NCBI GenBank assembly: GCA_024137785.1
Contig: JAHRHZ010000025.1
Span: forward strand, 30,649,624-30,707,185
Source of the DNA: Ginglymostoma cirratum
Lineage: Eukaryota
Reading direction: 5' to 3'
DNA: 57,562 nucleotides
Within the stretch, counting starts at the first letter, position 1, and each line of letters begins with the position of its first letter. Both the position numbers and the translations under genes were made by a program. Below are positions 3,020 to 57,562 of the stretch, one piece after another. The notes under the pieces are model-generated. The model ran no database searches. It saw nothing but the letters and a program-made list of their open reading frames with translations, and was not told where the DNA came from.

Positions 3020-3845
3020 GGACAGCAAGACTGTCCTAAGCAAGTGGTCTCCATTTTTGAATCATTGAGCTGGTATGCATTAAGCGACACTGAAATTGAA
3101 GGAATGGGGGGAGTATCTGGGCAGTTTTGTCCAGAACATAGCCATAACGCAGATGAAAAAAAAACATGAGCTCAGGAAAGGAAGGATATGACGGCTAGGA
3201 AAGCAGGTAGTGGGGATTGAGTAGAGATTGAGAACAAATAACTATAGATACCAGTCTGGTCAAATAAGTACAATGTACTCATTATCTGTGAGAACAAGAA
3301 AAGACAATGCAGATGAGGCAGCCACAATGCAGACCAAGTCATCATAGCTCAAGTGGGCGGTCAGAGTGGGGAAAAAAAAGAACAGAAATGCAGTACTAAC
3401 AGGGATTGTATAACTATAGGGATAATGTTGGCAAGGCACGAGCATTAAGAATGTCTTATGATGGCTGGAGGGGAATTTGGAAAGGGATGGGTAAACCAAA
3501 TTATTGTGGTCCATGTTGGAACAAATTATATTGGTAGGAACAATGAGGGGGTCCCATGGAATAACTAAATAAAAACCAAAAGAACAGCAAATGCTGGAAA
3601 TCAGAAACAAAAAAAGAAATTGCTGTAAAAGCTCAGCAGGTCTGGCAGCATCTGTGGGGAGACATCAGAGTCAATGTTTTGGGTCCAGTGAGCCTTCCTC
3701 AGAACTGATGGGAGCACATTTCTTTCCACAGATGCTGCCAGACCTGCTGAGCTTTTACAGCAATTTCTGTTGTTGCCATTGCCCATGGAAAGATTGTCAG
3801 GTATTAGGCTCTGAATTAAGAAGCTGGACCTCAAAGATAAAAGAA
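3020..3845 (+). mobile_element. Decayed CR1 ORF1 (SGNH esterase-like) remnant
   Basis: Translates to RNAVLTGD.. and IIVVHVGTNYIGR (cf. VHVGTND). It resumes after the hairpin insertion as KDCQVLGSELRSWTSK. Confidence 0.65.
3562..3781 (-). mobile_element. Fold-back Penelope-derived short element (family B) with putative 9 bp TSD
   Basis: Perfect inverted arms at 3615-3657 and 3726-3768. Flanked by cccatggaa at 3553-3561 and 3782-3790. Homologous to 5266-5504 and 49936-50035. Confidence 0.8.
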
Positions 3846-5265: not shown

Positions 5266-5504
5266 AAAAGTAAAATGAAAACTGAAAAAAACCTGCGGAT
5301 GCAGTAAATCAGAAACAAAAACAGAAATTGCTGGAAAAGCCTAGCAGGTCTAGCTGCAACTGTGGAGAGAAATCAGAGTTAACATTTTTGGTCAAGTACC
5401 CCTTCTGAGGAAGGGTCACTCAATCTGAAACATTAACTCTGATTTCTCTCCATATTGCTGCCAGACCTGCTGAGCTATTCCAGCAATTTCTGTTTGTTGT
5501 TTAA
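5266..5504 (-). mobile_element. Fold-back Penelope-derived short element (family B) with putative 8 bp TSD
   Basis: Inverted arms (~5312-5400 and 5405-5500) centred at cccttctgaggaaggg. The repeat aacctgta lies at 5258-5265 and 5505-5512. Confidence 0.8.
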
Positions 5505-8243: not shown

Positions 8244-8978
8244 GAGGAAGAAGAATACCTCTTCCAGGTTTTCAAGGATAATGGATATCCAAAAAACTGG
8301 GTCAGAAGATGCCTACACGAACATCATCAGGAAGATACTACACACCCCGACACACTCATCACACTACCCTACATCAGGAACACATCGGAACTAATCACAA
8401 GACTCCTACAACCGCTGGGCATCAGAGTGGCACACAAGCTCACATCAACCCTACGACAACTGCTCACCCGAACTAAAAACCCACTCCCTGCCATGGACAG
8501 GACTAATGTCTTCTACAAGATTTCCTGCAGAGACTGTGAGAAGCACTACACAGGACAAACAGGAAGGAAACTAACAACTAGGGTACACGAACACCAACTG
8601 GCTACAAAAAGACATGACCAATACTCACTTATCTCAATCCACATGGATAAGGAGAACCACCAATTCGACTGGGACAATACCAAAATCCTGGGACAAGCTA
8701 AGAAGAGACAGGAACAGGAATTCCGAGAAGCCTGGTACTCCACGAAGAGAGCCATCAATAAACACAGGGAACTCGATCCCATATACACTCCACTACGAAG
8801 GAAAACCAGAAGTGAGGCAATCCAGCTCAACAGACTCCAGAGTTTAAAGACCTGGCGGAAAACACACCAACGATTCATCGGAGGCTGCACTGATGATGTT
8901 ACCCAGCATGGTAACGAAACATCTGCGGAACAACAAACCAGCTCGGCGAGCCAACCAACCTCAACACCCACAACCTGA
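8244..8978 (+). CDS. Partial PLE polyprotein: RT thumb and GIY-YIG endonuclease (5' truncated, frame still open)
   Basis: The open frame from 8244 reads EEEEYLFQVFKDNGYPKNWV...LPYI...NVFYKISCRDCEKHYTGQTGRKLTTRVHEH...HQFDWDNTKIL...EAWYS. Confidence 0.85.
   Translation, partial: EEEEYLFQVFKDNGYPKNWVRRCLHEHHQEDTTHPDTLITLPYIRNTSELITRLLQPLGIRVAHKLTSTLRQLLTRTKNPLPAMDRTNVFYKISCRDCEKHYTGQTGRKLTTRVHEHQLATKRHDQYSLISIHMDKENHQFDWDNTKILGQAKKRQEQEFREAWYSTKRAINKHRELDPIYTPLRRKTRSEAIQLNRLQSLKTWRKTHQRFIGGCTDDVTQHGNETSAEQQTSSASQPTSTPTT
8885..8928 (+). ncRNA. Type I hammerhead-ribozyme-like motif
   Basis: Stem I is CTGCA/TGCGG and the core CTGATGA lies at 8890-8896, followed by an extra T. Stem II is GTTACC-cagcat-GGTAAC, then GAAAC-ATC. 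Confidence 0.75.
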
Positions 8979-9400
8979 GCTACAGATCTACTCCAATACC
9001 TTAGACACAAAAAAGTTTTAAGCTGATGTGTCATTTAGATTTATATTGTACGTTTTTTTGAATCACGCAACTGTTCTTTTCTTTCATTCATATCAATGAT
9101 TGTAAAATGGTTGGGAATAAGTTCTGTGCATTCAGTTTGCCTCATTGTAGTGAAATGGAACATCTAAAGAGAGAAATGGTATCCTGACTGAAAAACTGCA
9201 TCATGGGTTTGACAGCAAAAAATTTGACTTGAGTACATGTGACAATAAAGCTTAAATCAATCATATTAAATCAAAATTTGCTCATGTTTGCAAATTAATT
9301 TTGAAATTTGCTGGAACTGAGAGAGAAAAATAGGTCCCCCTAGAACTGATGATTGATATAGGTATTTGAGATAACAGCCAAGCAACTGCTTATTGAAGCT

Positions 9401-9456
9401 AAGATAACAAGGTGTAGAGCTGGATGAACACAGCAGGCCAAGCAGCATCATAGAAG
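9401..9456 (-). mobile_element. PLE family A terminal fragment
   Basis: aagataacaaggtgtagagctggatgaacacagcaggccaagcagcatca matches the left arm at 26705-26755. Confidence 0.75.
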
Positions 9457-10989
9457 CATTGCTTTGTGATTAAGGCCCAGAGAAAGACAGTAGATCTAGC
9501 AGGAGCTTTATATTGAGCAGGGATGGAATTAAAAACCAATCAAATTGGCCAAAAGCAGGGAAGTGACACCCAGTTAAAACCAGTAAAAGGAATAAAGGAA
9601 GCTTTTGAAGAAGGAATGGTTAATGCAGTGGGTGTAATGTTTTGATCAGCCACTCCTAAGACATTCTTGGAGAACTGTCGATGGATTGGCCGCTGAGACA
9701 GACTGTAGTTCATTGGGCTTCTAAGCAATCAGTGTCATTGGAAATAGGTACTCCTGTTTAGTAAGTGGAATATTTATTGGAACAATATTCAATTTGTTTT
9801 GCGTCTTCAATATCACGACTAGAATCTATAGACCAGGAATGGGAGTTTACAAGATAGAGAAGAAGCAACATTTTGCATTACACGTGAAAGAAAATCCTGA
9901 TCTGCAATATATCACAAACCATTATTGATACATTGACACATTAAATCACAATGTATAGAAAGTAAAGGAGAAGTATACAGATTGTGCACATAATTTCTGT
10001 CCTGGTGAGAATGTATGAATAAAGTCGTAATAAAATAGGTGACATATTTTCTCTTCCAGAAATTAAAAGGTATTATATGAAAAGTACAATCTCTCCTTTT
10101 TGTTCCTGAGAATTACTTGATTTGACATTGTCTAATGTGTGAAACAGGCATCATTTACTGTTCTCCTGCCCATTTTAATATGACACAATATCACACTCTC
10201 ATGTTCGCTTTCATGTACTATTCTGTATGTATCATTGATCTATTAGGTTACTATAGCACTTAACAAAGGCATTTTGCAACATTTCATATCAAATGGACAC
10301 CTTTCTTCCAAAGCAAAAGTCAGTGATTAGTGTTTAATGAAAGAGTTGTATTATCATTATTTAACTGATATGAATAAGGTTGCCGGAGAAAGGTGCAGAT
10401 TGAAGACCTAATGTACTCAGAAAAAAAACCTTTTAAATTGAGTAATAATCTTTGCAAAGTATTGGTTAAAATAGTAGCATGAGACGTGTAATCACTTGAA
10501 ACTTTTCTTTGACATGAGGCTTTATGACAAGTTCATATTCGATGATACTAATTAAAATGCTCAACTCCCAAAGGAAATGTAAAACTTACAGACATTTTCA
10601 CCTCACAGTAAATGGCTGATGTTATTAATGCAAAAATGGCTATTTATACTACAGTCAACAGGGTAAAATGTGGTCTTCCAAATTTCTCTTTAAATATAAT
10701 AATGGGTTTTGCTACAGACAGTACAATTAGATTTAATTCCTTTAATGCAGCCAAGATGGGTGAACATTGAACTGAAATAATTCCTAACATTTTACAAGTG
10801 CAACTTGGCTGAATATTATAAAGGATCATGTTCTGATAGAATAAGTCTTTATGCTTAATACAGTTTCTATTTATCATATTTCACAGAAGATCTGAACTCT
10901 AGAGAGGAGGTGAGAGTGACTGCACTTGTCATCTTGCCTGCATTTCAGCCATCAGAGAATCTTAATAAATTTGTGTCAATGAGAAAACT

Positions 10990-11650
10990 CTCCACCGATG
11001 GAGTCATATCTAGCATAAATGAAGATGATTATAGTTATGGGAAGTCAGTCATTTCAGCTCCAGGACATCTCTGCAGGAGCTTTTCAGCCATGTGTCCTAG
11101 GGTCCAAGCATCTTCAAAAGTTTCATCAATGACCTCCCCTCCACCATAAGGTCAGAAGTGGGGATGTTCTTAGATGATTGCACAATGTTCCATACCATTC
11201 GCAATTCCTCAGAAACTGAAGCAGTCCATGTTTAAATGCAGCAAGACTTAGACAATATCCAGGTTTGGACCGACAAGTGACAAGTAGTATTTATGCCACA
11301 TTAGAATCAGGCGATGACCATCTCCCTTAGAGACAATTGAACCATTGTTCCTTGACATTCAATGGCATGATGATCACTGAATTCCCCATTATGAATGTCT
11401 TGGGGTCGTAGATCAGAAGCTAAACTGAACTAGCCATATAAATACTGTGGCTACAAGAGCAGGTCAGAGGTTAGGAATCCTGCAGCAACCTCCTGATTCC
11501 CCAAAGCCTGTCCACCATCTTTAGGGCATAAATCAGGAGTGTGATGGAATACTTCCAAATTGCTCGGATGAGTGCTGCTCCAACAACACTCAAGAAGCTT
11601 GACTCCATCCAGGACAATGCAGCCTATTTGATTGGCACCACATCCACAGA
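10990..11650 (+). mobile_element. Decayed non-LTR retrotransposon RT region (CR1/L2-group)
   Basis: Reads FINDLPSTIRSEVGMFLDDCT (cf. FADD) and QQDLDNIQVWTDK*Q. Homologous to 24640-24990. Confidence 0.8.
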
Positions 11651-12920
11651 CAGCTCAAATTTATTTGTTTAGAAATCAATCCAATTCAGTAGATGAGTCT
11701 GAGGTTCTATAACCCTCAACACCTCATCTGCATTCTCCTTCCATACCAACCACTTTCCCTCATCGTATGCAAGCTCTGTGACAATATTGGACTGTACTAG
11801 AGATGCTCATAAAGGTCACAAAATAAAGTTATTCAAAATATGCATACAAAACCATCATCTTACTAGGAACCCATAAGATTGTCAAAGTAAGCAAGAAATG
11901 GTTATGGGGACAAGAACCCCACAGTGAGGCTGACTCATCATTTTTAAAAGTTACCAATGCCAGGTTGGTCACATTTTGGAACAAAAATGCTCATAAGCCT
12001 TAACCATGAAAGCTAAGCTGTTTAAAGAAAGGTGAAAGTTGATCTATGACTACTTTGGAAGTAAATAAAATCAATTCACTGGTCCACCTGTACATAGAAG
12101 GTTTCAAGTCTGGGACAGAGAAGTATTAAGACAATGTCTCTGCATATTTCCAATGGTAGATTCACCCAAATACTCGTAGGCCAATGTACAACAATATACA
12201 GAGGCTAAGTGTAAAATTAACTATTGCCAACACAAAAATGTGGATTTATTTATCTAATATTGCTGGTGTTATGTAACTAAAATTGTTAGTTATCATAAAT
12301 CAAAGCCTAATTTACACCACATACACTATTCATCAAATCAAAAAGATTTACTACAACTAAGCCGAAACATCCATTGTTTAATTGCTTGCAATTTTCCACT
12401 ATTTTCATCAAACCTATCTAGTGAACTCATGTATGCTATTGTCAGTAATTGAATTTGGCCAGTTTGCTCAACTGAGAACAACATTTGGAAAGAAATCTTT
12501 TCCTAAATCCACAAAGTTTTACCTTAACAGCATAATATTGTTTACAGGTCACAAAGTTTTTATCTTAATAAACCCTTGATCTTTAGCTTAAAATCCATAT
12601 AAGCCCAAATGATAAATATGTTTGTGGAATTGTCTATCATAAATGTGTATGTTCTGGCATCACAACATTTGCTGATAAAAACCTATTTTTTTCTTTGTCA
12701 CATATTTTCACCTTTTGTGTAGTCATCTTTATTATCCAACAGGGAATAGCAATATAAATAAGAAAATGATCTTTACCTAAGGAGGATCAAATAATTCACC
12801 CTTGCATTAGTAGCATTTTCTAAATCCATCATTTAGATATATAATTTAATTATATAATGCACGTAGTAGATGTACTTTTTTAAAGTTATATATGTACTAT
12901 GCCACATTTGAATGGAAGAC

Positions 12921-13130
12921 TTAGAATCAAAGAACGATACAGCACAATCAGGACATTCAGCCTATCGTCTCTATGCCATCCCTACAAATAGAGCTACCCA
13001 ATTTGTGCCATGTTACAGCTTTCTCCACAGACCTCTATCTTCCCTTCAAGTATACACTGAGTTCCTTTTTAAAAATTGCTTACAAATTTGGTTCCTCCAT
13101 CCATTTGGATGCTGAATTCCAATACACAGA
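12921..13130 (-). mobile_element. CR1 3' end remnant
   Basis: Antisense tail ttagaatcaaagaacgatacagcac...cattcagcc. Confidence 0.55.
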
Positions 13131-13398
13131 AATTTGTGTAAAAGCAAACATTTGTACCTGTCACCATTGGTTCTCCTGTCAAAATATGCTGTGTTTGGTT
13201 CCTGACTTCTATTGCTACTACGGTGTTTTTTTACTCAGTGTGACAAAAATGTCCTTATTATGAACAATTATGAAATTTACCTTCAGTCTTCTCTGATATA
13301 AAGAAAACAACTTCAACTTTAGGTTCTTAGTGACAAAACTAAGTGAAGTTCCAAATTATAAACACAAACATGCTGCAATACAAAATATCAAATATTAT

Positions 13399-13960
13399 TT
13401 AGAATCACAGAACGGTTACAGCACTGAAGAAGGCTATTTGCTTTTTTCAAATCTGTACAGGCTCTCTGCAGGAGCAATTTAGCAAATCCCCGTCCCTCTT
13501 CCTTTCCTGCTGATTTTCAAGATTATTTTTCTCTTCAGATTTAATTCCCTTTTGAAAGCCACAATGAACCTGCCTTCATAATTTCCTCGGGCAGCATATA
13601 TCAGATTCTTGATGTATCTATGCTTTCTAAAGGGAGTTAGACTGTGGGATAATACAGAAAGAAAGCAGGAAAATGGCATCAAATGAAATACTTACTTGGA
13701 GAACTGGTGCCATCATGATATGGTGAACGGCCTCTGGTATGTGCTGTATTAATTCTGTGATTCTATGATCTTTGGTTCTTTGGAAATCACCTTAAATTTG
13801 TGTCCTCAGTTCTTGATCTTTCCACAACTGGGATCATTTTCTTCCTATCAACTCAATCTCGACCCATTAGTCTGAACAGCTATCTCAAACCTCCTTTCAT
13901 TTTTTGCTTCTCTGTAGAGAACAACCCACATTCTTCAATCACAATGCTTTCATCGCTGGA
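13399..13960 (-). mobile_element. CR1 3' end remnant containing a + strand CR1 tail (~13620-13770)
   Basis: Antisense tail tagaatcacagaacggttacagcactgaagaaggc; internal sense tail ctgtattaattctgtgattctatga. Confidence 0.6.
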
Positions 13961-14928
13961 AAAGTTTTATGAACTGCTTTTTAATTTGTTTAATTTTGCT
14001 GCACTTCATCAACAACAGTGTAAGCTACAAAGTTTTAGCCAATGCAATAAACTGAACTTGTATAAGAATAATTTAAGTAGGTTAGTTTTGCTTTATGTAA
14101 GTATTGTCTTAGCATTACTTGATGAGTTAGTTTTCCTATTTTGAATCCTTGTAAAGCAATATGACTTCTGTTAAAATAATTTTCACATTTCTTCAGTCAC
14201 ATTAGCTGTTCAGATGGAAAGCATATTCCATCTCCTAGCAAATGTGCATTCATTGTACATCTTCTCAATAAAAATATAAAAATACAAATTCCTATCTACT
14301 AACACAAACATGCTGTGGATTGTGGAAAGAAGTAAAAATATCACAGTGATGAATTCACTAAGGAAAGCCTTGCCAACAAGATAGCAATCCTTTCATTTTA
14401 CTTTGTCTGCTGTGGCATTCATGAATTTTCAACTGAATACGTCCAAAAATAGTATCATCTGAGCTTACCAATAAGTAGCACATTGACTGGGAAAAAGTGT
14501 GCTTACGTACATAATTGTACTCAAATTTGCAACTGAAATTAAGCATGGTGCAATCCCAAACTCTTACATTGTATATACGACTGTCATAAGTCCATTCTTC
14601 AAAGCAGTGCATATAAAATAATCAGAAAGACAAAATAATGACTAATTATGAAAATAAATACCAGCACACAAAGGAAAGTGGGTGTTTTTTGCTTGTTGAG
14701 CTTGGTATTAATGGTATCATTTCAAAATGACATTGATAGCCTGCTCAATTTGCCATTTCAGAGCAGCTGATGCTGTTTTGCAAGGGGTGTGAAAGGATAC
14801 TGAAAGTGTGCCTATTTTTTAAAAAGTACTTTTACAGTGCAAGTTGAGAACCCAGAACTTCAAGTGCAATTGTTTGGTTAAATTAGTTTGGATGTGCAGT
14901 GTGAATGGTTTGATAGTTTTTTTTAAAA

Positions 14929-15254
14929 TAGAAGCCCCGCAGCGTGAAAACAGGGCATCCAGCCCATCAAGTCCACACTGACCCTCCACACAGCATCCCA
15001 CCCAGAACCATCCCCCTACTCTATTCCTGAAAGCCTCCATTTCCCATAGCTAACTGACCTAGCCTGGACACGATGGGGCAATTTAGCATGGCCAATCCAA
15101 TTAACCAGCACATCTTCGAGCTGCGGGAGAAAACCCATGCAGATACAGGGAGAATGTGCAAACTCCGCACAGATGGTCATCCAAGGCTGGGATTGAACTT
15201 GGTTCACTAGAGCTGTAAGGCAGCAATGCTAACCACTGAACCACCGTGCCATCC
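14929..15254 (-). mobile_element. HE1-type V-SINE
   Basis: Reverse complement has a tRNA-like head (ggcacggtggttcagtggttagc...aagttcaatccc), the V-domain gagtttgcacattctccc and a CR1/HER1-like tail. Confidence 0.9.
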
Positions 15255-16062
15255 AACAAGCTGTAGAGTTGTTAAGTTTGAAATTAGCTTTGGGCTGACA
15301 CTAAGACTGTAATCTCTTCCACCCTGCACAACTTACAACTTGCATACAGCTAGAGTGGTCTAATATTGGTCAACATTAATCCACCGAACTGCAGCTGGAT
15401 GCCAGTTTGGCAACCTATAGCTCAGCTGCTCAATACACTGAGGGCAGCAGCTAAAAATCACGGCCACCTCTTTACTGTGGTGTACTCCAAAAGTCAGGAG
15501 CCCAAAAGCCAAACTTTATCTGAGAATGTAACCTAGAGTCTTCAGTAAAAATTGCACAACCTGAATACTGGAGAACAAAGGTAATTTGGTCAATCCTTCC
15601 ACCCATTAGCAAATAAATTGTATCATCCACCCTTTCTAGCATTTAACTCTTTAAAGAATTGTGATCCACTGCCTCAGAAATCTGTGTCAAATGTTGATTG
15701 TTCCTTGTGTGAGAAAACAGCACCTTCAAGGAGAGTAAACTCTCAAAGCCTATTTTGAGATTCTTACTAGTTCTTTTAAATATTCAAATGACCAATAACA
15801 CTTCGAGATTTCATATCTGAAATTAAGCTGTTTGAGCTGCTTTGTTAATGACATGCTGAGTAGGAGCATCTCGGTGTGAAACAAAAACATAGAGAACAAA
15901 GGTTCATTGGTGATTTATGTTGAGCTGGTTAATGGTGCATCAGTAAGCAGGAAGATGGATGTAGTTGACTTTGAGAGGGGTGAAATAAAAGGTACATGTC
16001 CAATCATAATTATGTTCCAATGTGGTACCTACAGTGAACTCACAGCTGCTCAGATAGACAGC

Positions 16063-16145
16063 AGAGTCTAAAGGTGTGAGACTGGAAAAACACAGCAGGT
16101 CTGATCGCATTTGAGGAGCAGGTAAGTCAATGTTTCAGGCCGATT
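16063..16145 (-). mobile_element. PLE terminal fragment (related family)
   Basis: aaggtgtgagactggaaaaacacagcaggtc...gaggagcagg...tgtttcagg resembles the family A arm. Confidence 0.5.
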
Positions 16146-17066
16146 TGGTCCATTTTGGACCTTATTGTCTCTCACATAGATTGCAGCCAGTTACCAACAC
16201 GCAGCTGAAATTTACACTCCTGAGACAGAGGGTTCAGAGGCTGGAGATGGGAATTTATTCACCCAATAGACGGCCTATTCCCTCTGTTCTGCCACTCTTA
16301 ATATATTGTCAGCAGTGGGGTTAACATTCTTGCCAGTAGGTCAATTGAGATTCTTAAGTGTGCAATTAATTCCCAATTAATGGCCCTGTCTTGTTGCCAG
16401 TAGGGCTTAACCAGGGGCAGCAGAAGCCCACATCTGACAGCCGGGCTGGTAGGTTTTCCAGGGCGTCAAGATTTTTAAGGCCCACATTGCTCTCACCACA
16501 TTTGTCCTTTTAAACTACACCTGTGACCTGCTCGTTTCACACCAAAGATGCCAAAACACTGACCCAAATGCCAGTCCAATGCCCTGATTGGCCAGCAGTT
16601 CTCTGAGGTGGGACTTTCTGTCTCAGAAGTCCAGCTCCTCAGTACATTGCAAGCTACCATTTAGTGCTTACCGGGAACAAGTGTTCCCTTTGGTGGGCTC
16701 CCTTCCACCTTAATCCTTAGCCTAGGAGAAACGGTCAGGAAGAAAATCCAGTGTCTCATGTAATTTGTCCCAAAGAATGGAAACAATTTATGGCACAGAA
16801 GGAAACCATTCAGCCCAGCTTATCCATGCTATCCAGCCTGATCCTACTTTCCAGCTCTTGGTCCAGAGCTCAGCAGGTTCCAATATCTCAAAAGCATGTG
16901 TTCAAGTGAGTTACACAATTTTATTAATGCAACGATGATTTCAGCCTCTAAAACTCTTCAGCTCCTCTGTCTGAAAAATACAACAGCAGCCCGTCAAATT
17001 TTACTCCTGCCTGAAATTCTCCTTTCTTGAGGTTGTTGACTTGCTCGCTGAGCTGACTTGTTTTTG

Positions 17067-17108
17067 TTCAGATGTTTCATCACCATGCTAGGTGACATCA
17101 TCAGTGGA
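17067..17108 (-). ncRNA. Hammerhead-ribozyme-like motif (antisense arm copy)
   Basis: Reverse complement is CTGATGA-T-GTCACC-tagcat-GGTGAT-GAAAC-ATC, with CpG-type decay. Confidence 0.6.
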
Positions 17109-17214
17109 GCCTCCGATGAAGCCATGTTATTCTACTCCGCTTGGAATTTATACTGTCTGGTCCGTCATGGTATAAATTCCAAGCAGAGTCGAATAACATC
17201 GTGTCATCGGAGGC

Positions 17215-17256
17215 TCCACTGATGATGTCACCCAGCATGGTGACGAAACGTCTGAA
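17215..17256 (+). ncRNA. Hammerhead-ribozyme-like motif (intact core)
   Basis: CTGATGA(17219-17225)-T-GTCACC-cagcat-GGTGAC-GAAAC-GTC(17250-17252). Confidence 0.75.
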
Positions 17257-17409
17257 CAAAAACAAGTCAGCTCGGCGAGCAAGTCAACAACGTCACCCAC
17301 AACCCGAGATACAGATCTTTACCGATACTTTATTCTCCATTCTTGATAACAATTGTTGTAAATCTCCTCTGTACACTCTCTTTACCCGCATCTACAAAAT
17401 TAAAGGCAT

Positions 17410-22984: not shown

Positions 22985-25030
22985 AATCTTAATTTCCCAT
23001 CTGAAATGGCCGAGCAAGCCATTCAGTTGAGTCAAATTATAACCTATGCTATTGGTAACAACAAAGGCTCACCTAACTCATTTTTCCTCACTAATATCTC
23101 GGAACATGTGCTGACATTGGGAAAGCTGCCTTATCAACCAGTAAGCAAAATTTTGATGTTGTCATTAACATGAAATCAAACCTTACAGAAATGTCTCAAC
23201 TTCATCATTACTATCCCTGAGCATGTTCTGTTCCACTGGTGTAACAGATTAGCCAGAGGTGACAGAATGTTTGCGTACAATCGAAAGGAAGTGAACCTGA
23301 GAGTTTTCAACATTGACTCTAGACTCAGGTCAAACGTGGGTTACAGAATCGCCTGTTGATTTCAGCCCTTCTACCATAACCAAGCCAGGGGACGTGGTTC
23401 AATTCTAATTCAATGAGCACACCATCAGCAGAGGCACCAACACTAAGCATTCCTGAAAGTGAAATGCCAATCAGATGAAGCTAAAAATAAAGGACAACGT
23501 TGATGTTAGGAAGCAGAAGCAGCATGTGATAAGGGAGCTAAGTGATCCACAATCAATGCATCAGGTCAAATCCCTGCAGCGTTGTCACATCCAGTTGTGA
23601 ATGGTTGTGGACAATTAAACAACTAACCAGAGGAGGAGAAAACTACATAATATTCATAAACCAGTAATGACAGATCCAGCATCTCTGGTCAAAAGACAAG
23701 GCTGAACGTTTGCAACCATCTTCAGCCAGAAATATCAAATGGATGATTCCTCTCAGCTTCCTGCTGATGTTCCCAGCATCCCAGATGCCAGTCTTCAGCC
23801 AATTTGATTCAAATTAAAAGGTGCTGAATAAAACAAAGGCAATAGGGCCTGACAGCATCCGAGCAGTAGTTCTGAAGATTTGTGCTCCACAAATGCTGCA
23901 CCTCTAGCCAAGATATTCTAGTATAGCGACAACACTGGCACTTACTAAGTGGTGTACAAAACTGCCCAGGAATGTCCTTTTCACAAAATGGAGAGCAAAT
24001 CCCATCCAGCCAACTACCACTCTACCAGAGATAGTAAGAAGTGCTGATGCTGGAGTCTGAGATAACACAGTGTGGAGCTGGAGGAACACAGCAGGCCAGG
24101 CAGCGTCAGGGGAGCAGGAAAGCTGATGTTTCAGGTTGAGATCCTTCTTCTGAAATGGGGGAGGGGAAGGGGGCTCTGAAATAAATAGAGGGAAGGGGGT
24201 CAGGCTGGGGAAAGTAAGTGGGATGGTGATAGGTGAGTGCAGGTAGGTAGTGGTGGGGATTGGTCAGTGAGGTGGGAGGAGCGGATAAGTGGGATAGAAG
24301 ACAGACAGGTCAAGGAGGCGGGGATGAGAGGGAGGATTGGTCATGGGATCAGGCTGGGGGTGGATCCCAGCGTTCAGAAAATGCTGAAAGATGTGACCCA
24401 TTGTGCTATCGAACAGCATTTACTCAGCACTAACCTGTTCATCAACATTTTGCTTGGTTCTGCAAAGGTGGCTTGGCTCTAGACCTCATTTAGTCCAGAC
24501 ATGACAAAAGAGCTGAACACAAAAAATGAGGTGATAGTGACTCACCCTTGATACCAAGGCAACATTCGACGAAGTGAGGTATCAAAGTATCGTTTCTAAA
24601 CTGAAGCCAATGGGAATGAGGGGAAATCATATCTATCAGTAAAGAAGATGTTGAAGGTCAATCTTCTTAGACACTGAGCATCACTGCATAAGTTCTTTAT
24701 GAAAATGTCCTACTTCCAATTATCTTCAGCTGCTTCACCAGTGACCTGCTCTCCATCATCAGGTCACAATTAGGGATGGCTGTTGCAGATTGCACATTTT
24801 CACTATCACTCACAATTCCTCAGGGTACTGAAACAATTCAAATCCACATGCAACAGAAGCTAGAAAATATGTACACTTGGGCTGAGAAATGGCAAGCAAA
24901 TTTGTGCCACACAAGTGCCAGGCAAGAACCATCGCTGTGAGGAGAGAAAATAACCAATTCCCATTGCTAACACCAGTGCTGAAACCTCCAAGATCAACAG
25001 TGCTGGGTGGCTGTTCACCAGAGACATAAC
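22985..25030 (+). mobile_element. Decayed LINE (APE and RT), same family as 10990-11650 and 25060-27065
   Basis: Reads KAIGPDSIRAVVLKICAP and PANYH; its 5' part aligns with 25310-25700. Confidence 0.75.
24026..24365 (-). mobile_element. PLE family A 3' end (pyrimidine-rich UTR and terminal repeat)
   Basis: Reverse complement is colinear with 57160-57562. The hammerhead-like core is decayed. Confidence 0.85.
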
Positions 25031-25987: not shown

Positions 25988-26355
25988 ATAGAATCATAGA
26001 ATCCCTACAGTGTGGAAACAGGCCATTCGGCCCAACAAGTACAAACCACCCCCTCCAAACAGCATCCCACCCAGACCGAGACCCAGTCCCCACCTTTCCT
26101 TGTAACCCTACATTTCCCAAGTCCAATCCATCTAACTTACATACCCCCGAACACTACAGGCAATTTAGCATGGCCAGTCCACCTAACCTGCACATCTTTG
26201 GGCTGTGGGAGGAAACTGGAGCACCCAGCAGAAACTCACACAGGCACGGGGAGAATGTGCAAACTCCACACAGACCGTCACTTGAGGGTGAAATCAAACT
26301 GAGGTCCCTGGTGCTGTGAGGCAGCAGTGCTAACCCCTGAGCCACCGTGCCACCC
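25988..26355 (-). mobile_element. HE1-type V-SINE, full length
   Basis: tRNA-like head gggtggcacggtggctcaggggttagc, V-domain and (gattctat)n tail. Confidence 0.92.
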
Positions 26356-26505
26356 ATTGACATCATTTACAGTACACTTACAATATACATGACCTTATTT
26401 TCATGAATCTGCCTGCCATACATACACTCATCCGTGACACTGTCAGTAGGAGGGACCTTGTGGACTTGAAGTCCATACTCACATTGGTTCATGGTAGTAT
26501 CACCA

Positions 26506-26685
26506 TACTAAGTGCATTGAGTTAAAACCGATCTAGCACATTCAAAATTGTGCATCTAAGAGATACTGTGGCACATCATCAGTAGCAAGATTTTACTAAG
26601 TGCATTGAGTTAAAACCGATCTAGCACATTCAAAATTGTGCATCTAAGAGATACTGTGGCACATCATCAGTAGCAAGATTTTACT
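26506..26685. repeat. Perfect 2 x 88 bp tandem duplication
   Basis: Units start at 26506 and 26594 and are identical, with 'tact' microhomology at the junctions. Confidence 0.95.
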
Positions 26686-26704
26686 CCAACATAATTTGCA
26701 ACCT

Positions 26705-26932
26705 GAGATAACAGGGTGTAGAGCTGGATGAACACAGCAGGCCAAGCAGCATCAGAGTAGCAGGAAAGCTGATGTTTCAGGCCTAGACCCTTCTTCAGAA
26801 AATGAAGAAGGATCTAGGCCTGAAACGTCAGCTTTCCTGCTCCTCTGATGCTGCGTGGCCTGCTGTGTTCATCCAGCTCTACGCCCTGTTATCTCAGATT
26901 CTTCAGCATCTGCAATTCCTACTATCTCTGAA
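26705..26932 (+). mobile_element. Fold-back Penelope-derived short element (family A) with 14 bp TSD
   Basis: Inverted arms of ~93 bp centred near 26800 plus a ~37 nt tail. The repeat ataatttgcaacct lies at 26691-26704 and 26933-26946. Confidence 0.92.
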
Positions 26933-29191: not shown

Positions 29192-29525
29192 TAGAATCAT
29201 AGAATCCCTACAGTGTGGAAGCAGGCTACTCCACCCATCAGTCCACACTGACTCTCCGAAGAGCATCCCACCCAGACCCATCCTTATACCCTATCCATGA
29301 AATCTTGCACTTTTGCCATGGCTAATCCACATACCCTGCACATGCCTGAACACTATGGGCAATTTAGCATGGCCCATTAACCTAATCTGCACATCTTTGG
29401 ACTGTGGGGGAAACCAACGCAGACAACGGGCAGAATGTGCAAACTCCACAGAGACAGTTACCTGAGGCTGGAATTGAATGTGGGTCCCTGGCGCTATGAG
29501 GTAGCACTGAGCCACCATTTCGCCC
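29192..29525 (-). mobile_element. HE1-type V-SINE
   Basis: Colinear with 25988-26355, with an internal deletion. Confidence 0.9.
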
Positions 29526-36295: not shown

Positions 36296-36606
36296 ATAGA
36301 TAATCATAGAATCCCGAAAGCCATTCAGCCCATCGAATCTGCACGGGCCCTCCAAAGTGCATCCTGCCCAGACCCATCTTTCCATCCCCATAATCCTGCA
36401 TTTACCACAACTATCCCATATAACCTGCACATCACTGGGCAATTTGGCATCTTTGAATTGTGGAAGGAAACCAGAGCACCCAGAAGAAATCCATGCAATT
36501 GCAGGAAAAATGTGCAAACTCCACACAGACAGTGACCCAAGGATGGAATCGAACTCAGGTCCCTGGTGCTTTGAGGCAACAGTGCCAGTCACTGTGCCAC
36601 TGTATC
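36296..36606 (-). mobile_element. HE1-type V-SINE
   Basis: V-domain tgtgcaaactccacacagac, B-box gagttcgattcc on the reverse strand, and tail catagaatccc. Confidence 0.88.
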
Positions 36607-43367: not shown

Positions 43368-46240
43368 TAGAACATAGAACTGTACAGCACAGGAACGGGA
43401 CCTTCAGCCCATGATGTTGCGCCACACACAATACCAAATTAAGCCAATCCCTTCTGCCTGCCCTTGGTCCATATTCCTTCATTCCTTGCATATTCATGTG
43501 CCTGCATAAAAGTCCCTTAAATGCCCCTACTGTATCTGCTTCCACCACTATCCCTGGCAGCACGTTCCACATTCCAACCATTCTCTGTGTAAAAAAACTT
43601 GCCCCTCACATCTCCTTTGAACTTTCCCCCTCTCACCTTAAATGCATGCCCTGTAGTATTAGACTTTGCAATTCTGGGAAAAAGATTCTGACCCTGTCGA
43701 TGCATATCATAATTTTATAGACTTCTACCAAGTCCCCCTTCAGCCTCTGCTGCTCCAGAGAAAACAACCCAAGTTTTTTATAGCCTTTCCTTATAGCTCA
43801 TACCCTCTAATCCATGCAGCTTCCTGATAAACCTCTTCTGCACCCTCTGCATCCTTGCTGTAATGTGGTAACCAGAAATGAATGCAATACCCTAAATATG
43901 GCCTAACCAAAGTCTGATAAATCTGCAAAATGACATCCTGACTCTTGTACTCAATACCCCAACCAATAAAGGCAAGCATGACATATGCCTTCTTTACTAC
44001 CCTAACTACTTGTGTGGCCACTTTCAGAGAGCTATGGACTTGAATCCCAAGACCCCTCTGTACGTCAATGCTGTTCAGGGTCCTGTCATTAACTGTGTAC
44101 TTTTCCTTAACATTTGACCTCCCAGACTGCAACACCTCACACTTACCTGGATTAAACTCCATCTGCCATTTCTCCACCCGTATCTGCAACTGATCTCTAT
44201 CCTGCTGTTTCCTTTGACAACTTTCTACACTATCCACAACTTCACTGATCTTTGTATCATCTGCAAACTTACTAATCCACGCATCAACATTTTCATGCAA
44301 GTCATTTGTATTTTTCACAAGCAGCTGAAGTCCTAGTATGGATCCCTGCAGGACCCCATTCATCACAGATCTCCAGCCTGAAAAACACTCTTCCACCACT
44401 ACCCTCTACTGTCTATGTGTAAGCCAATTCTGAATCCATATGGCCATGTCACTGTGGATCCCATGCACCTTAATGTTCTGGATGATTCTACCATGAGGGA
44501 CCTTGTCAAAAACCTTACTAAAATCCACGTAGACAACATCCACTGCTCTACTCTTGACCTCCTTGAAAAATTCAATCAAGTTAATAGGATATGACCTGCC
44601 CCACATAGAGCCATGCTGACTGTCCCTAATTAGGCCATCCTTTTCCAAATGCACATAAATCCTACGTGTAAGAATTCTTTCCAATAGCTTCCCAACTGTC
44701 GATGTGAGACTCACTGGTCTAGAGTTTCCTAAATTATCCCTATTTCCTGTCTTGAACACAAGAACAACATTAGCTACTTGCCAGTCCTCCAGGGTGTCTC
44801 CGGTGGCTAACGAGGATACAAAGATCTTGGTCAAGGCCCCAGAAATCTCCTCTCTTGCCTCTTTCAATAACCTGGGATAGATACCTCCAGGGTGTGAGGA
44901 CTTATCCACCCTAATGTTTTTCAAGAGACCAAATACCACTTCTTTCCCTAGCATATTAACATGCTTTACACAAATTTCACTATCCTCCATCTCCTTCTCC
45001 TGGGTGAATAGTGACACAAAATATTAATTTATGGTCTTGCCCACTTCCTCTGCCTCCAAGCACAAGTTTCCTCCTTTATCTTTGAGTAATCCTAGTTATC
45101 CTCTTAATTTTAATGCATGTATAGAATGCCTTGGGATTCTCTTTAATCGTACTTGCCAAGATCATTTCATGGTCCCGTCTTGCTCCCCTAATTCTCTTCT
45201 TGAGTTCTGTCCTGTTTTCTTTACATTCCTCATGGGCTCCGTTCAATTTTAGCTTCCTAAATCTTACATATGCTCCTTTGTTCCTTTTGACTAAATTCAC
45301 AACTTCCATCATCCAATGGTCACGTACCTTGCCATCCTCATCCTTCTTCCTTACTGGAACATACCAGTCCTGAACTCTGATCACTAGTTCTTTAAACAAC
45401 TCCCTCATGTCAAATGTGGATTTGTCAATAACAGCCCCTCCCAATTAAGACTCCCTAGCTTTTGACTAATACTAATGTAATTTGCCCTCCCCCAATTTAG
45501 TACCTTTTCGCGTGGTCGTGACTTATCCTTATTCATAGCTATTTTAAAACTTGAGGAGTTATGACCACTGTTTCCAAAATGCTCTCCCACTGAAAGGTCA
45601 GTCACCTGGCTCATTAGCCAATATAAGATCCAGTATGACCCCTCTTCTAGTTGGACTATCCACATACAATTTCAAGAAACCCTCTTGGACGCACTTGACA
45701 CATTCTGCCTTGTTTAAGCCTTTTGCTCTAAGGGTGTCCCAATCAATATTGGGGAAGTTAAAGTCACCCACTATGAAAACCCTGTTGCTATTGCATTTTT
45801 CCATAATCTGTCGACATATTTATTCCTCAATGACTCGGGGGCTTTTGGGGAGCCTATAGTGTAAGTTTGTCACAGTGATTGCACCCATCTTATTTTTGAG
45901 CTCAACCCATTTTGCCTCAGTGGATGAGCCCTCCAGTACATCCGCTCTGAGTGTAGATGTGACATTCTCTCTGATTAGTAAAGCAACTCCTCCACCTCTT
46001 TTACCTTCCTTTTTATCTTTTATAAAACAAAAAAAACCCTGGAACATTGAGCAGCCAGTCCTGTGCCTCTATCAACCAAGTCTCTGTAACGGCCACAACA
46101 TCATAGTCACATGCACTGATCCGGGGTCTAAGCTCATCTGCCTCACCTATAATACTCCTTGCCTTGAAACAAGCACACTTCAGCCCATTAATACCATTGC
46201 GTTCATTTACCCGTCTCTGCCTGTCCTTCCTTTCTGACTT
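43368..46240 (-). mobile_element. CR1/HER1 LINE with near-complete but disrupted ORF2 (APE and RT) and 3' tail
   Basis: Consecutive ORF fragments contain VAVTETWL, GGGVALLIRE, IVGDFNFPNIDW, NSRPVSLTS, DFSKVFDKVPH and KFADDTK; (ttctatg)n tail. Confidence 0.95.
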
Positions 46241-47144: not shown

Positions 47145-47670
47145 AAACTGGTGGTGTGATGGCAATTTCACTGATTAGTAATCAAGTAACACAGGCCAAC
47201 CTTCTAGGCACATAGGTTTGAATCCCACCATGGTAGGTCATGAATTTAAATGAAATTAGAACAGTGGCATAATAGCAACCATGTTGATTGTCAGAAAAAA
47301 CACATCTTGTTTGTTAATTTTTCAAGTCAAGTCACCCTTCCTCATAACTCAACCCAAAACATTAACTCTGATTTCTCTTCACAGATGCTGCCAGACCTGA
47401 TGAGCTTTCCCAGCAATTTCTGTTTTTGTTTCTGAGTTACAGCATCCGCAATTCTTTCAGTCTTTGTTTGCTAAAGTTCTTCAGAGAGGAAAAACTGCAA
47501 TCCTTGCCTGGTCTGGCCTATATGTGACACCAGGCCAATTGACATGTGGTCGATACATAAACTGGTGATTCTCAGAAATGACTCTTAACTTCCCTCGGGG
47601 GAATTACAGATGGGCAATAAATGCTACCCTATGCAGCGACACCCACATGTCATGCATGAATAAAGGAAAA
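47145..47670 (+). mobile_element. tRNA-headed short non-autonomous element related to the 5' end of the 25060-27065 LINE
   Basis: A-box-like tggtgtgatgg (47152-47162), B-box-like ggtttgaatcc (47215-47225) and an A-rich end ggcaataaatgct...atgaataaaggaaaa. Confidence 0.7.
47320..47463 (+). mobile_element. PLE family B terminal fragment with collapsed hairpin centre
   Basis: cacccttcctca...aacattaactctgatttctcttcacagatgctgccagacctg plus tail; possible TSD ttgtttg(t/c)taa. Confidence 0.75.
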
Positions 47671-47802: not shown

Positions 47803-48100
47803 TGGCTCAGCTAGTAATACTCTGGGTTTTGAGTGAGAAGGTTTGTGGGCCAAGTCTTGCCAGGGGACTTAGCCATAAATAAAGCTGAAGCTTTAGTCCA
47901 TTACTGAAGGTATGTGGCATTGTCTTTTGGAAAAGATATTTAAACCAATGTCCTGCATTCTCATTCAAGTGGATGTAAAAGATACCAAAGTGCTATCTTG
48001 AAGAAGAGCAGGTGACTCATCTCCATGCATTCTGCTAAATACTTATCCATCAATCAACATTGATAAAACATTATCTGGTCATTTTGACATTGTTATTTTT
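47803..48100 (+). mobile_element. DeuSINE (SacSINE1-like), interrupted at its 3' end by HE1
   Basis: tRNA-like head tggctcagctagta, then Deu domain gtggatgtaaaagatacc...tgaagaagagcagg...attatctggtcatt. Confidence 0.75.
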
Positions 48101-48402
48101 ATAGATCCCTACAGTGTGGAAACAGGCCCTTCGGCCCAACAAGTCCACACCAACCCTTGGAGCATCCCTCCTAGATCCATCCCCCTATAACCCACCTAAG
48201 GTACACATCCCTGAACTCTACAGGCAATTTAGCACGGCCAATCCACCTAACCTCCACATCCTTGGACGGTGGGAGGAAACCAGAGCACCCAGAGGAAACC
48301 TGCACAGGCACAAGGAGAACGTGCAAACTCCACACAGACAGTCGCCCGACGGTGGAATCTAACCTGGGTCCCTGGCGCTGTGAGGCAGCAGTGCTAACCG
48401 CT
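48101..48402 (-). mobile_element. HE1-type V-SINE
   Basis: Colinear with the other HE1 copies. Confidence 0.9.
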
Positions 48403-49935: not shown

Positions 49936-50035
49936 ACAATGAAAACAGAAGTTGCTGGAAAAGTTCAGCAGGTCTGGCAGCATCTGTGAAGAGAAATCAG
50001 AGTTAACGTTTCTGGTCTGGTGACCTTTCCTCAGA
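49936..50035 (-). mobile_element. 100 bp single-arm PLE family B insertion with 9 bp TSD
   Basis: acaaagcca lies at 49927-49935 and 50036-50044. Removing the insert restores CR1 QHGFVKG. The element starts TCTGAGGA-AAGGTC-acca-GACCA-GAAACGTT. Confidence 0.9.
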
Positions 50036-51430
50036 ACAAAGCCATGTTGTGTCATATTAACTTGCTTTTTCTCTAAGTGTACATTTATCCTGTATTACGG
50101 CCTCTAACAGTTTTCCCACTCCTGATGTCAAGCTGACAGGTCTATAGTTTCCTGGGTTATCCTTTGCCCCTTTCTTAAATAATGGTGTCACATTTGCAAT
50201 CCTCCAGACCCATGGGGCTGATCCTGCATTCTGAAATGCCTGTAAAATTCTTGTCAAAGGGTGCACAATTTGTTTCCTTTACTTAATGTAAATGTAAGAT
50301 ACATCCTATCCGGGTGACTTATCTACCTGGAGTGCGGCCAGCCATTTTTTGCACTTCCTCTTTATCTGTCACTATACTGCTCAGTTGCTCAACACCCACA
50401 TTTTCAAATAGGCCATTGTCACTATTTCCTAATTTTCTAAAGAGAGAAACAAAGTATTAGTTTAGTACCTCTGCTGTACATTTTGCTTATCCTAATTGTT
50501 CCTTATGGACCCCACTCTAACTGCCACTAATATTTTACTATTAACATGTTTAAAGTACATTTTATTATTTGTTTCAGCACAGCCTGACATCCTTTCCTCA
50601 TGCTTCTTCTTAGCCTTCCGTATTCTAGCCTTATCCTCTCTTGTACATTTGAGATCTTCTTCCTGATTTCTACTGTTATGATTATTCCAGTGCACCTCAT
50701 ATGCCTCCATTTTCTCCTTTACTTTCTCATCAATATCCTTAGTCGTCTGGGTTACTCTAGTTTGGATAGCCCAGATTTATTTATCTAGGTTGCACCCTAT
50801 TCATCTTTTTTGAAATTCTCCCATTTTTTATCCATCTTATCCACCAAAATATGTTCCAAATCATCCTGCTCCAGTTCAACTTTTAAACCCTTAAAATCTA
50901 CCCTTTTACAGTCTGGAATCTTAATCCTTCAATGATTATTATCTTTTTCCAACTTAATATTGATTCTTATTTTATTATGATTGGTACTTCCCATATGCTT
51001 TCCCATTCTGATGTTGTCCATTTGGCCTGCCTGATTTTCTAGGACCAGATCCAGTACAGCTCCCTCGCTGGTAAGGCTGGAAATGTTCCAGAAAGTTCTC
51101 CCCTTCCATGCCCCATACTCTAGCTTTCTACCTGAGGGTAACTGAAATCACCAACCATCACAACCCAACCTGTCCTGCAGACCTCTATAATCTGCCTGCA
51201 AATACGCTCTTCTTTTTCCTCCCCACTATTTGCAGGTCTATAAAAATACCCAGCAAGGTCACTGCTCCCTTCCTGTTTCTCTTCTTTAACATACAGATTC
51301 TTATTTAGGAATTACATCTTGTTTAAGGGCTATGATACTATTCGAATCTCCTCCCTTTTTATATACCTGTGTCTATTAAAAACCTTATGACCCAAGATGT
51401 TAATCATTCTGTCCTGTTCTGGCTTACTGA

Positions 51431-52099: not shown

Positions 52100-52309
52100 C
52101 CTACAGTGTGGGGCAGGTGGTTCAGCACATCGACTCCACATCTAACCTAACCCCATAGCCCTGCATTTCCCATGCACCTCTTTGGACTGTGGGAGGGAAC
52201 TGGAGCACCTGGAGGAAACCCACGTAGACGCGGGGAGAATGTGCAAACTCCACACAGACAATCGCGCAAGGGTGGAATCATACCTGGGTCTCTAGCGCTG
52301 TGCCGCCCC
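52100..52309 (-). mobile_element. HE1-type V-SINE, internally deleted
   Basis: V-domain ggagaatgtgcaaactccacacagac with a partial tRNA head. Confidence 0.85.
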
Positions 52310-56902: not shown

Positions 56903-57562
56903 AAGCTTGGGGACCGCTTTGCAGAACACCTGCGCTCAGTTCGCAACAAACAACTGCACCTCCCAGTCGCGAACCATTTCAACTCCCCCTCCCATTCCTC
57001 AGACGACATGTCCATCCTGGGCCTCCTGCAATGCCACAGTGATGCCACCCGAAGGCTGCAGGAACAGCAAATCATATTCAGCCTGGGAACCCTGCAGCCC
57101 AATGGCATCAATGTGGATTTCACAAGCTTCAAAATCTCCCCTCCCCCAACCGCATCCCAAAACCAGCCCAGCTCATCTCCACCTCCCTAACCTGTTTTTC
57201 CTCTCACCTCAAGCCACACCCCCATCTCCTATCTACTAACATCATCCCGCCCCCTTGACCTGTCCGTCCTCCCTGGACTGACCTATCTCCTCCCTACCCC
57301 CCTACCTACACTCACCTTTACTGGCTCCATCCCCGCCTCTTCGACTTGTCTGCCTCCTCTCCACCTATCCTCTCCTCTATCCATCCTCTATCCGCCTCCC
57401 CCTCTCTCCCTATTTATTTCAGAACCCTCTTCCCCTCCCCCATTTCTGATGAAGGGTTTAGGCCCGAAACGTCAAGTTTTCCTGCTCCTATGATGCTGCT
57501 TGACCTGCTGTGTTCATCCAGCCCCATGCTTGTTATCTCGGATTCTCCAGCATCTGCAGTAC
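56903..57562 (+). mobile_element. 5'-truncated Penelope-like element (family A): GIY-YIG C-terminus, pyrimidine-rich UTR and terminal repeat
   Basis: ORF 56894-57190 reads LGDRFAEHLRSV...PVANHFNSPSHS...EQQIIFSLGTLQPNGINVDF. Its 3' end matches the hairpins at 1-127 and 26705-26932. Confidence 0.92.
57443..57476 (+). ncRNA. Minimal hammerhead-ribozyme-like motif
   Basis: CTGATGA(57446-57452)-A-GGG-tttagg-CCC-GAAAC-GTC(57471-57473), with a palindromic ACGT in place of helix III. Confidence 0.6.

Follow-up and report, generated by a model that had tools for sequence, protein, structure and literature searches.

Minimal type I hammerheads (min-HHRs) of PLEs were surveyed by Cervera & De la Pena 2014 (PMC4209133), and the accessible part of that survey gives the consensus CUGANGAH GNNNNN..NNNNNC GAAAN palindrome NUH, which includes an extra base after A9 and a palindromic 15.2–16.2 segment, and places the hammerhead in the pseudo-LTR in all PLE clades examined. 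The Schistosoma min-HHR cleaved weakly as a dimer and a trimer and, in the assays presented in that part, did not cleave as a monomer (PMC4209133). In PAc, the Poseidon element of Anolis carolinensis, the ORF starts at stem II and the cut lies 26 nt downstream; according to the accessible part of Frangieh et al. 2024 (PMC11167929), the PAc HHR cleaves only with protein present, is dispensable for in vitro insertion, and yields no RNA-seq reads ending at the cut site in the data given there. Naiads, PLEs that spread without canonical HHRs, lack the hammerhead, and 8 of 9 dimer elements from Xenopus showed no cleavage. Small PLE-associated hammerhead variants reportedly cleave as dimers, judging by the title of a 2016 report by Lunse, Weinberg & Breaker. 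Vertebrate non-LTR retrozymes, whose type I HHR repeats derive from PLE pseudo-LTRs, include one reported chondrichthyan (bioRxiv 10.64898/2026.07.22.740005); beyond this case, described in the accessible part of a preprint whose supplements may bear on the matter, our literature search found no shark PLE hammerhead. The retrozyme units are arranged head to tail in tandem, each with an HHR, whereas the copies described below are either solo and 5'-truncated or form an inverted pair.

Here we analyzed a 57,562-nt stretch of the Ginglymostoma cirratum genome (the window), which contains three such motifs; the nearest proteins point to a shark. These are very probably minimal type I hammerheads of Penelope/Poseidon pseudo-LTRs from two sister families (A and B), whose active source elements likely cut RNA weakly as dimers, with the likely aid of the protein that the element itself encodes. 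The motifs match an already described kind; the third copy, the overlap with the AUG, and the genome count go beyond the original prediction. The discovery is a small one, since PLEs of this type are expected to carry min-HHRs and the same architecture has already been published; its value lies in the material.

Copy 1 (family A; 8885–8928, + strand, predicted cut after 8923) includes CTGATGA (8890–8896), an extra T (8897), a 6-bp stem II (8898–8903/8910–8915) with U-A at pair 3, GAAA (8916–8919), CATC (8920–8923), and a 5-bp stem I (8885–8889/8924–8928) with one G-U pair. Its palindrome is broken, with ACAU in place of the self-complementary ACGU (G16.2 to A at a CpG), and helix III of a dimer would therefore be damaged. 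Copy 2 (family B; 17214–17257, + strand, core at 17219–17252, predicted cut after 17252) has an intact core, an intact ACGU palindrome, and C-G rather than T-A at stem II pair 3. The stem I of copy 2 is weak (2 bp, a C-A mismatch, and 1 bp; predicted probability of about 0), and because of this defect the segment 17200–17270, proposed in the original prediction as the substrate for a cleavage assay, would be a poor choice. The same prediction had reported both + strand motifs, the 5-bp stem I of copy 1, and the T-A to C-G change in stem II between the two copies, all of which we found as described. It had overlooked the broken palindrome of copy 1, the weak stem I of copy 2, and copy 3 (family B; 17066–17109, − strand, C3 at 17104), which carries two CpG-type changes, C11.1 to U and G16.2 to A.

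The accessible description of metazoan min-HHRs (PMC4209133) agrees with these motifs in the core, the extra nucleotide, the G10.1–C11.1 pair, the long helix II, the short helix I, the palindrome, and the place in the pseudo-LTR. The core CUGANGA ... GAAA ... NUH is present in all three window copies, and so is the extra nucleotide between 9 and 10.1. In a 25-copy alignment, G10.1–C11.1 is G-C in 21 copies, G-U in 3, and otherwise in 1 (copy 3 is G-U), and helix II has 6 bp with 96% of cells paired (min-HHR range 4–8 bp). Family A has a helix I of 5 bp and a third family, E, one of 3 bp; that of family B (2 bp, a mismatch, and 1 bp) is marginal. The min-HHR range is 2–5 bp. A palindromic helix III had also been expected; min-HHRs have a palindromic 15.1–16.1 segment and lack helix III. 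ACGU is the majority palindrome in every family and is intact in copy 2, but it was lost in copy 1, and the ACAU of copies 1 and 3 arose by decay. The proposed comparison with Rfam speaks against the hammerhead reading, as scans of the window and of 8860–8960 matched no hammerhead family at E-values up to 10.

Two motifs would pair through ACGU and thereby form helix III. In the predicted fold of 8780–9010, copy 1 has pair probabilities of 0.95–0.98 for stem II and 0.82–0.96 for stem I, and the values are 0.6 and 0.4, respectively, in a short window. The designed dimer is predicted to gain almost no stability over a pair of monomers (−21.9 versus 2 × −10.6 kcal/mol), and an inactive co-fold at −35.1 kcal/mol lies far below it.

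Copy 1 belongs to a 5'-truncated family A element of the Penelope/Poseidon type (8244–9003, + strand), which was delimited by its ORF and by homology to genomic copies and consists of a C-terminal thumb and GIY-YIG endonuclease fragment followed by a pseudo-LTR with the hammerhead and the tail. The original prediction of a GIY-YIG PLE holds through RT-bearing (RVT_1) fuller genomic copies and homologues, whereas the window fragment alone gives only a weak Pfam match (E-value 0.1). Many genomic copies match the ORF of 8244–9003 at 82–87% amino acid identity, with 48476 candidates at first look, and the right end at 9003–9005 is common to copies. A 671-aa frame in one genomic copy (L073) matches RVT_1 with an E-value of 4.8e-11 and GIY-YIG with an E-value of 0.79. 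Very long open frames among the family A candidates were rejected as runs of N. The layout is that of Penelope/Poseidon: a single ORF, an RT with the DKG motif, and, at the C terminus, a GIY-YIG with CxxC. The Zn-finger linker between RT and EN, an extra feature of Neptune and Nematis (PMC8557442), is absent in family A and present in family C. The insertion traits of Penelope/Poseidon were likewise found (5' truncation, inverted copies, a 30–40 bp tail, and target duplication), although around the family A copy of the window itself a target duplication was looked for and not found. Within the pseudo-LTR, the motif lies 3' of the GIY-YIG domain in copies and 5' of the ORF in two of them (L080 and L017).

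The two related PLE copies of the window had been taken as one Penelope family; the relationship stands, but they represent two sister Poseidon-type families, A and B, with an endonuclease identity of about 55%, and longer family B copies carry their own endonuclease ORF. The protein tree came from a quick search and comprised 27 of 120 listed homologues, none of them a named Poseidon or teleost reference. Fluke and other-shark homologues probably also carry hammerheads, judging by their N-terminal residues. The printed Clonorchis sinensis (1) motif shares the stem II 5' strand, the 6-nt loop, and the UGCA stem I with families A, B, and E and is nearly identical to that of family B (PMC4209133). 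Fig. S3 of that survey shows 56 motifs, none of them from a cartilaginous fish.

In the shark elements, A9, the extra U, and G10.1 form the AUG that opens the PLE ORF, and the motif overlaps the first ten ORF codons. The ORF 5' end is repeated at 8896–9003 (+ strand), which is 53% identical to the N-terminus of a full-length PLE protein (P0004), and copy L017 aligns without gaps to residues 1–140 of that protein, with one internal stop. In the commonest Neptune-type family, an A rather than a U follows A9. The arrangement is apparently the same as in PAc, compared by its description, where the ORF also starts at stem II (PMC11167929). In PAc, two reverse-transcription start sites define the 30–40 bp tail (PMC11167929); the ends here fall about 71 and 108–110 nt past the AUG, 37 nt apart. 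PAc is known from biochemistry (PMC11167929), whereas the shark families are known from their sequences.

Because the AUG lies within the hammerhead core, cleavage would remove the start codon: a cut after C17, 28 nt into the ORF, would eliminate both in-frame AUGs and would also release unit-length RNA from tandem transcripts. We tentatively consider it possible, though somewhat doubtful, that the hammerhead is a translational off-switch in the shark-and-fluke Poseidon branch, in which the U is kept for the AUG and the element's protein, bound 70–110 nt downstream, triggers the cut in its own mRNA, and that more than 100,000 intact cores with the common ACGU palindrome might enable trans cleavage between shark transcripts. 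If true, this would be the highest load of ribozymes in any genome covered by our searches.

Alternatively, the motif might be hammerhead-derived but no longer cleaving, above all in family B, and be kept as start-codon context, as N-terminal coding sequence, and as protein-binding RNA near the reverse-transcription start sites, which we judge to be rather unlikely. The overlap with the ORF start agrees with this explanation, as does the conservation of the 3' flank (81% over 129 nt between families A and B), and this flank and the coding region mean that part of the motif conservation has other causes. The main family B lineage also has a defective stem I (in 102 of 131 copies of family B, C and A are mismatched at the third pair), and both the PAc HHR mutants, which were without effect on in vitro insertion (PMC11167929, accessible part), and the spread of Naiad PLEs point the same way. 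However, C3-U4-G5-A6 and G8, which lie 5' of the AUG, as well as G12, A15.1, and U16.1, each of which occupies a third codon position, are all kept in families A, B, and E and in Neptune-type elements, and the related Anolis motif does cleave (PMC11167929).

Families A and B are identical at 31 of 34 motif positions, versus 43 of 101 four-fold sites of the endonuclease (four alignments), which are thus close to saturation. The bare core is common to A/B and Neptune-type elements, whose RT identity is about 29% and whose stems differ. The core is conserved in distant PLE families; the 3' flank is similarly conserved between A and B. A protein search gave an unbiased set of 33 copies at 18 loci, in which variation affects 55 of 231 cells at N7 and loop II together versus 16 of 363 in the non-CpG core, which indicates that the lineage changes fall on free positions. 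Core divergence in this set is 4.4% versus 5.6–6.4% in the flanks, a near-neutral decay of inserted copies, and the core and palindrome are both intact in 10 of the 33. An earlier per-position divergence that suggested a conserved core was discarded, as its copies had been selected on the motif.

Copies 2 and 3 lie in a complete short fold-back insertion of family B (17030–17332, without a single strand) composed of two inverted pseudo-LTR arms and a tail. The arms (17028–17295) form an inverted repeat of 89% identity, with a tail of 37 nt attached to the right arm (17296–17332), and the insertion lies between target-site duplications of 12–15 bp at 17016–17030, whose last bases overlap the element end, and at 17332–17346, with one mismatch to the left copy (both + strand). 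Inverted arms, tail, and target duplication are formed anew at every insertion; 10–16 bp target duplications were found at 60 of 94 inverted pairs (control, 0.014 per test). Such insertions fit PAc, which cuts and extends both target strands (PMC11167929), and opposite-strand motif pairs 100–700 bp apart also occur in metazoan PLE min-HHRs (PMC4209133). In the predicted fold-back RNA (−212 kcal/mol), the sense motif is fully paired to the antisense arm and the stem II probability is 0, so copy 2, which lies in one arm, is predicted to be buried in double-stranded RNA. All three window copies are therefore likely inert, copies 1 and 3 lacking the palindrome and copy 2 being trapped, as predicted, by the antisense arm.

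It is very improbable that this 300-bp palindrome is instead a discrete non-autonomous MITE- or retrozyme-like element that is mobile as a unit, with two cooperating hammerheads. About 40 similar palindromes are among the matches listed, and rare variants are common to both arms of a locus beyond chance (25 versus 4.0 shuffled in family B, 9 versus 1.4 in family A). Nevertheless, we rejected a fixed MITE because the centre junction varies between fold-back copies and the arms of inverted pairs lie 12 to 1406 bp apart, in a continuous range; longer family B copies have the endonuclease ORF, and motifs on opposite strands leave each transcript one sense copy, paired to the antisense arm.

Genome-wide, 2412 sequences match the A/B-type pattern exactly, versus 0 for the reversed control, with stem II pair 3 being U-G in 601, C-G in 393, C-A in 30, and, by subtraction, U-A in 1388. 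The compensatory change that had been proposed is thus seen genome-wide, with C-A depleted (30 versus 249 expected under independence), but it reflects few lineage events, and covariation of this single pair was not significant in 25 hand-picked copies of A, B, E, and others (reached by 48 of 500 shuffles for pairing and 84 of 500 for score). It is barely conceivable that a multicopy repeat resembles a hammerhead by chance and that two transitions, unrelated to each other, only look compensatory. In favour of this, the copies lack independence, the double change amounts to one or two events, and the formal test is not significant, yet this explanation is already contradicted by the core that recurs at 29% RT identity, the published pseudo-LTR position and near-identical Clonorchis motif (PMC4209133, accessible part), and a strict structural scan with one match in the window and none in 60 Markov resamples. 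The prediction of a PLE-borne minimal type I hammerhead is thus sustained by the fit to the published consensus, the Clonorchis motif, and the core kept across distant families. Family E carries the U-G intermediate at pair 3, and the three sister families, with graded stems (stem I of 5, 3, and 2+1 bp; stem II U-A, U-G, and C-G) and an AUG in the core, make processing, translational switch, and relic separable. With a different descriptor, the counts in the accessible part of PMC4209133 go up to about 4,000 in the coelacanth and about 9,000 in Xenopus; here, exact core matches number 108,039 versus 50 for the control, or about one per 40 kb.

We designate three minimal type I hammerheads (min-HHRs) of Penelope-like elements (PLEs) in the window copies 1, 2, and 3. 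Copy 1 (8890–8923 from core to cleavage triplet, + strand) reads CUGAUGA, one extra U, and GAAA-CAUC, with a 6-bp stem II closed by a 6-nt loop and a 5-bp stem I (8885–8889/8924–8928) containing one G-U pair. Copy 2 (17219–17252, + strand) has C-G at the site of the copy 1 U-A pair. Both lie where the original prediction placed them; copy 3 (from 17104, − strand) was found additionally by a motif scan. The motifs are real, and their identification as PLE hammerheads was right: core, extra base, and stems fit an already known class, defined by Cervera and De la Pena (2014, PMC4209133) by the extra base, a long helix II, the palindrome, and opposite-strand pairs. A strict structural descriptor gave 1 match in the window versus 0 in 60 Markov resamples. 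The Rfam hammerhead models did not match the window motifs, which is unsurprising given that the motif lacks helix III. In all likelihood, these are standard PLE min-HHRs, with weak, dimer-dependent, and probably protein-assisted cutting of the source-element RNA.

Copy 1 lies at the end of a 5'-truncated family A element (~8244–9003), whose ORF is 82–89% identical to many genomic copies (150 of 48476 candidates scored). Judging from the RT and C-terminal GIY-YIG domain, without the Neptune linker, of its fuller copies, family A is of the Penelope/Poseidon type. Ranked by identity, the top proteins among the best 120 of 1057 come from Chiloscyllium and Stegostoma (64–67%), followed by those of trematode and other PLEs (51–56%). 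A rapid tree with 29 rows, none of them a teleost reference, joined family A to the shark proteins (SH-aLRT 99); together these results support an elasmobranch host. The shark clade (including the genomic copy L073:2703-4715(-)) stood among the trematode and other PLE proteins P0004, P0020, P0076, and P0087 (SH-aLRT 98), and a trematode (Clonorchis) hammerhead is nearly identical to that of family B; host–parasite transfer is possible. A rarer sister family (L194:1481-1554(-)) differs in stem II and its loop and has its own endonuclease, 48–54% identical to that of A. Copy 2 is a member of a separate family, B, whose longer copies encode their own endonuclease (~55% identical to that of A; 43/101 four-fold sites identical in four alignments).

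The compensatory stem II change of the original prediction is real and genome-wide: exact counts at pair 3 (n = 2412) are U-A 1388 (by subtraction from 2412), U-G 601, C-G 393, and C-A 30, the last against ~249 under independence. Clustering of 301 motifs by flanking sequence separated families A (89 copies, mainly U-A) and B (131 copies, mainly C-G) from a further one, E (8 clustered copies plus singletons; U-G); because family E carries U-G, the T-A to C-G change has a wobble intermediate. However, the change is one column with few lineage events, and covariation in 25 hand-picked copies did not place the structure above shuffles (48/500 and 84/500). Better evidence of selection is the contrast between core and free positions together with the presence of the core, with different stems, in Neptune-type family C (~29% RT identity). 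In 33 copies from the protein search, N7 and loop II were variable at 55/231 cells and the non-CpG core at 16/363. Against selection on the motif count the near-flank decay of these inserted copies (core 4.4% versus flanks 5.6–6.4%; 10 of 33 intact) and the 3' flank, which is conserved too, with 81% A–B identity across 129 nt. The main rival, that the hammerhead is a non-cleaving relic retained for coding and protein binding, is improbable overall and most plausible for family B, in which stem I characteristically contains a C-A mismatch (102/131 copies).

Predicted folds differ between the copies. Within 8780–9010, stems I and II of copy 1 are predicted with probabilities of 0.82–0.98; its palindrome reads ACAU, so its designed dimer is weaker than that of an intact copy (−15.0 versus −21.9 kcal/mol). 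In copy 2 the core is intact, but stem I is not predicted; when the whole insertion is folded, the motif pairs completely with its antisense arm (−212 kcal/mol; probability of stem II, 0). Even for an intact copy, the modelled dimer is only slightly more stable than two separate monomers and much less stable than an inactive co-fold (−35.1), which agrees with the low activity found for this class (PMC4209133). Directly 5' of stem I (~8872–8885 and 17201–17214, partly decayed in the window copies) lies a short hairpin, 5 bp closed by a 4-nt loop; it is kept in families A, B, and E, while sequence further upstream diverges, and it could replace loop 1 in tertiary contact. A GC-rich near-palindromic hairpin common to the three families (8942–8952 and 17271–17281), ~20 nt past the cut site, is a candidate protein-binding or second dimer site.

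The hammerhead overlaps an ORF start: A9, the extra U, and G10.1 form an AUG, and the reading frame starting there shares 53% identity with the N-terminal part of the full-length Dicrocoelium PLE protein P0004 (copy L017 aligns gaplessly to residues 1–140, with one internal stop). Its N-terminal signature, M-x-[PS]-x-x-x-x-K-R-L, is found again in P0004 and P0005 and at an internal position in P0011, which suggests, at the level of residues, the same overlap in those elements. The predicted cut, 28 nt into the ORF, would strip both in-frame AUGs. In the Poseidon element of Anolis (PAc), the ORF begins at stem II and the cut is 26 nt downstream; cleavage requires the protein present, core mutants had no effect on insertion, and none of the reads ended at the cut site (PMC11167929). 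For the shark elements, we infer that two min-HHRs would dimerise and weakly cleave the source-element RNA, probably with protein help; such cutting would process tandem transcripts and remove the start codon.

Copy 2 lies in the right arm of a family B fold-back, an 89% inverted repeat (17028–17295) whose right arm is 37 nt longer and which is flanked by a 12–15 bp duplication. Such inverted arms with a tail are an insertion form already described for PLEs (PMC8557442), and the structure fits the extension of both target strands, from two RNA start sites, seen in vitro (PMC11167929). A fixed MITE was rejected, since the centre junction varies from copy to copy (22 aligned B loci) and spacing in 94 inverted pairs ranges from 12 to 1406 bp. 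Of these 94 pairs, 60 have 10–16 bp target duplications (control, 0.014 per test). Within an insertion, the two arms have more rare non-CpG variants in common than shuffled arms do (B, 25 versus 4.0, 36 pairs; A, 9 versus 1.4, 23 pairs), reflecting either a shared template RNA or subsequent conversion between the arms.

Genome-wide, CUGANGA-N-G...C-GAAACGUH, a core pattern that does not require stems, had 108,039 exact matches versus 50 for the reversed control (94,257 versus 14 when restricted to C17, the base before the predicted cut), or about one per 40 kb. This is about tenfold the top count of PMC4209133 (~9,000, Xenopus), whose descriptor differs, so the two counts compare only loosely. 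Family C, dominant among the core matches listed, is far more abundant than the A/B type, often as short fold-backs, and belongs to a PLE of the Neptune type whose linker is CxxxxCxxC. Fig. S3 of PMC4209133 includes a Clonorchis motif nearly identical to the family B hammerhead and no cartilaginous fish; a 2026 preprint (bioRxiv 10.64898/2026.07.22.740005) reports HHR repeats in one chondrichthyan. Literature searches, preprint supplements not covered, found no shark-specific description of the min-HHR. What is new is confined to the lineage, the copy number, and a hint, across phyla, that an AUG forms part of the core.

Family C min-HHRs (4-bp stem II, extra A) lie at 33(+), 57446(+), and 26798(−), with related remnants at 1–131, 9395–9458, 24026–24199, 26700–26930, and 57398–57558. 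A family D min-HHR (5405, + strand; 5-bp stem II, N7 = G, GUU cleavage triplet) belongs to a family found in palindromic remnants at 3567–3775, 5273–5502, 47313–47469, and 49942–50037. Fragments of another retroelement (43791–45444, − strand; RVT_1, E 9e-10) are, we presume from motifs, CR1-like. A SINE-like dispersed repeat of ~340 bp has six copies at 66–80% identity (14913–15255, 25989–26356, 29192–29509, 36322–36603, 48089–48402, and 52173–52302). The window also holds a 284-bp direct repeat (51431–51714/52328–52611, 91%) and, at 26506–26685, an exact tandem duplication of 92 bp.
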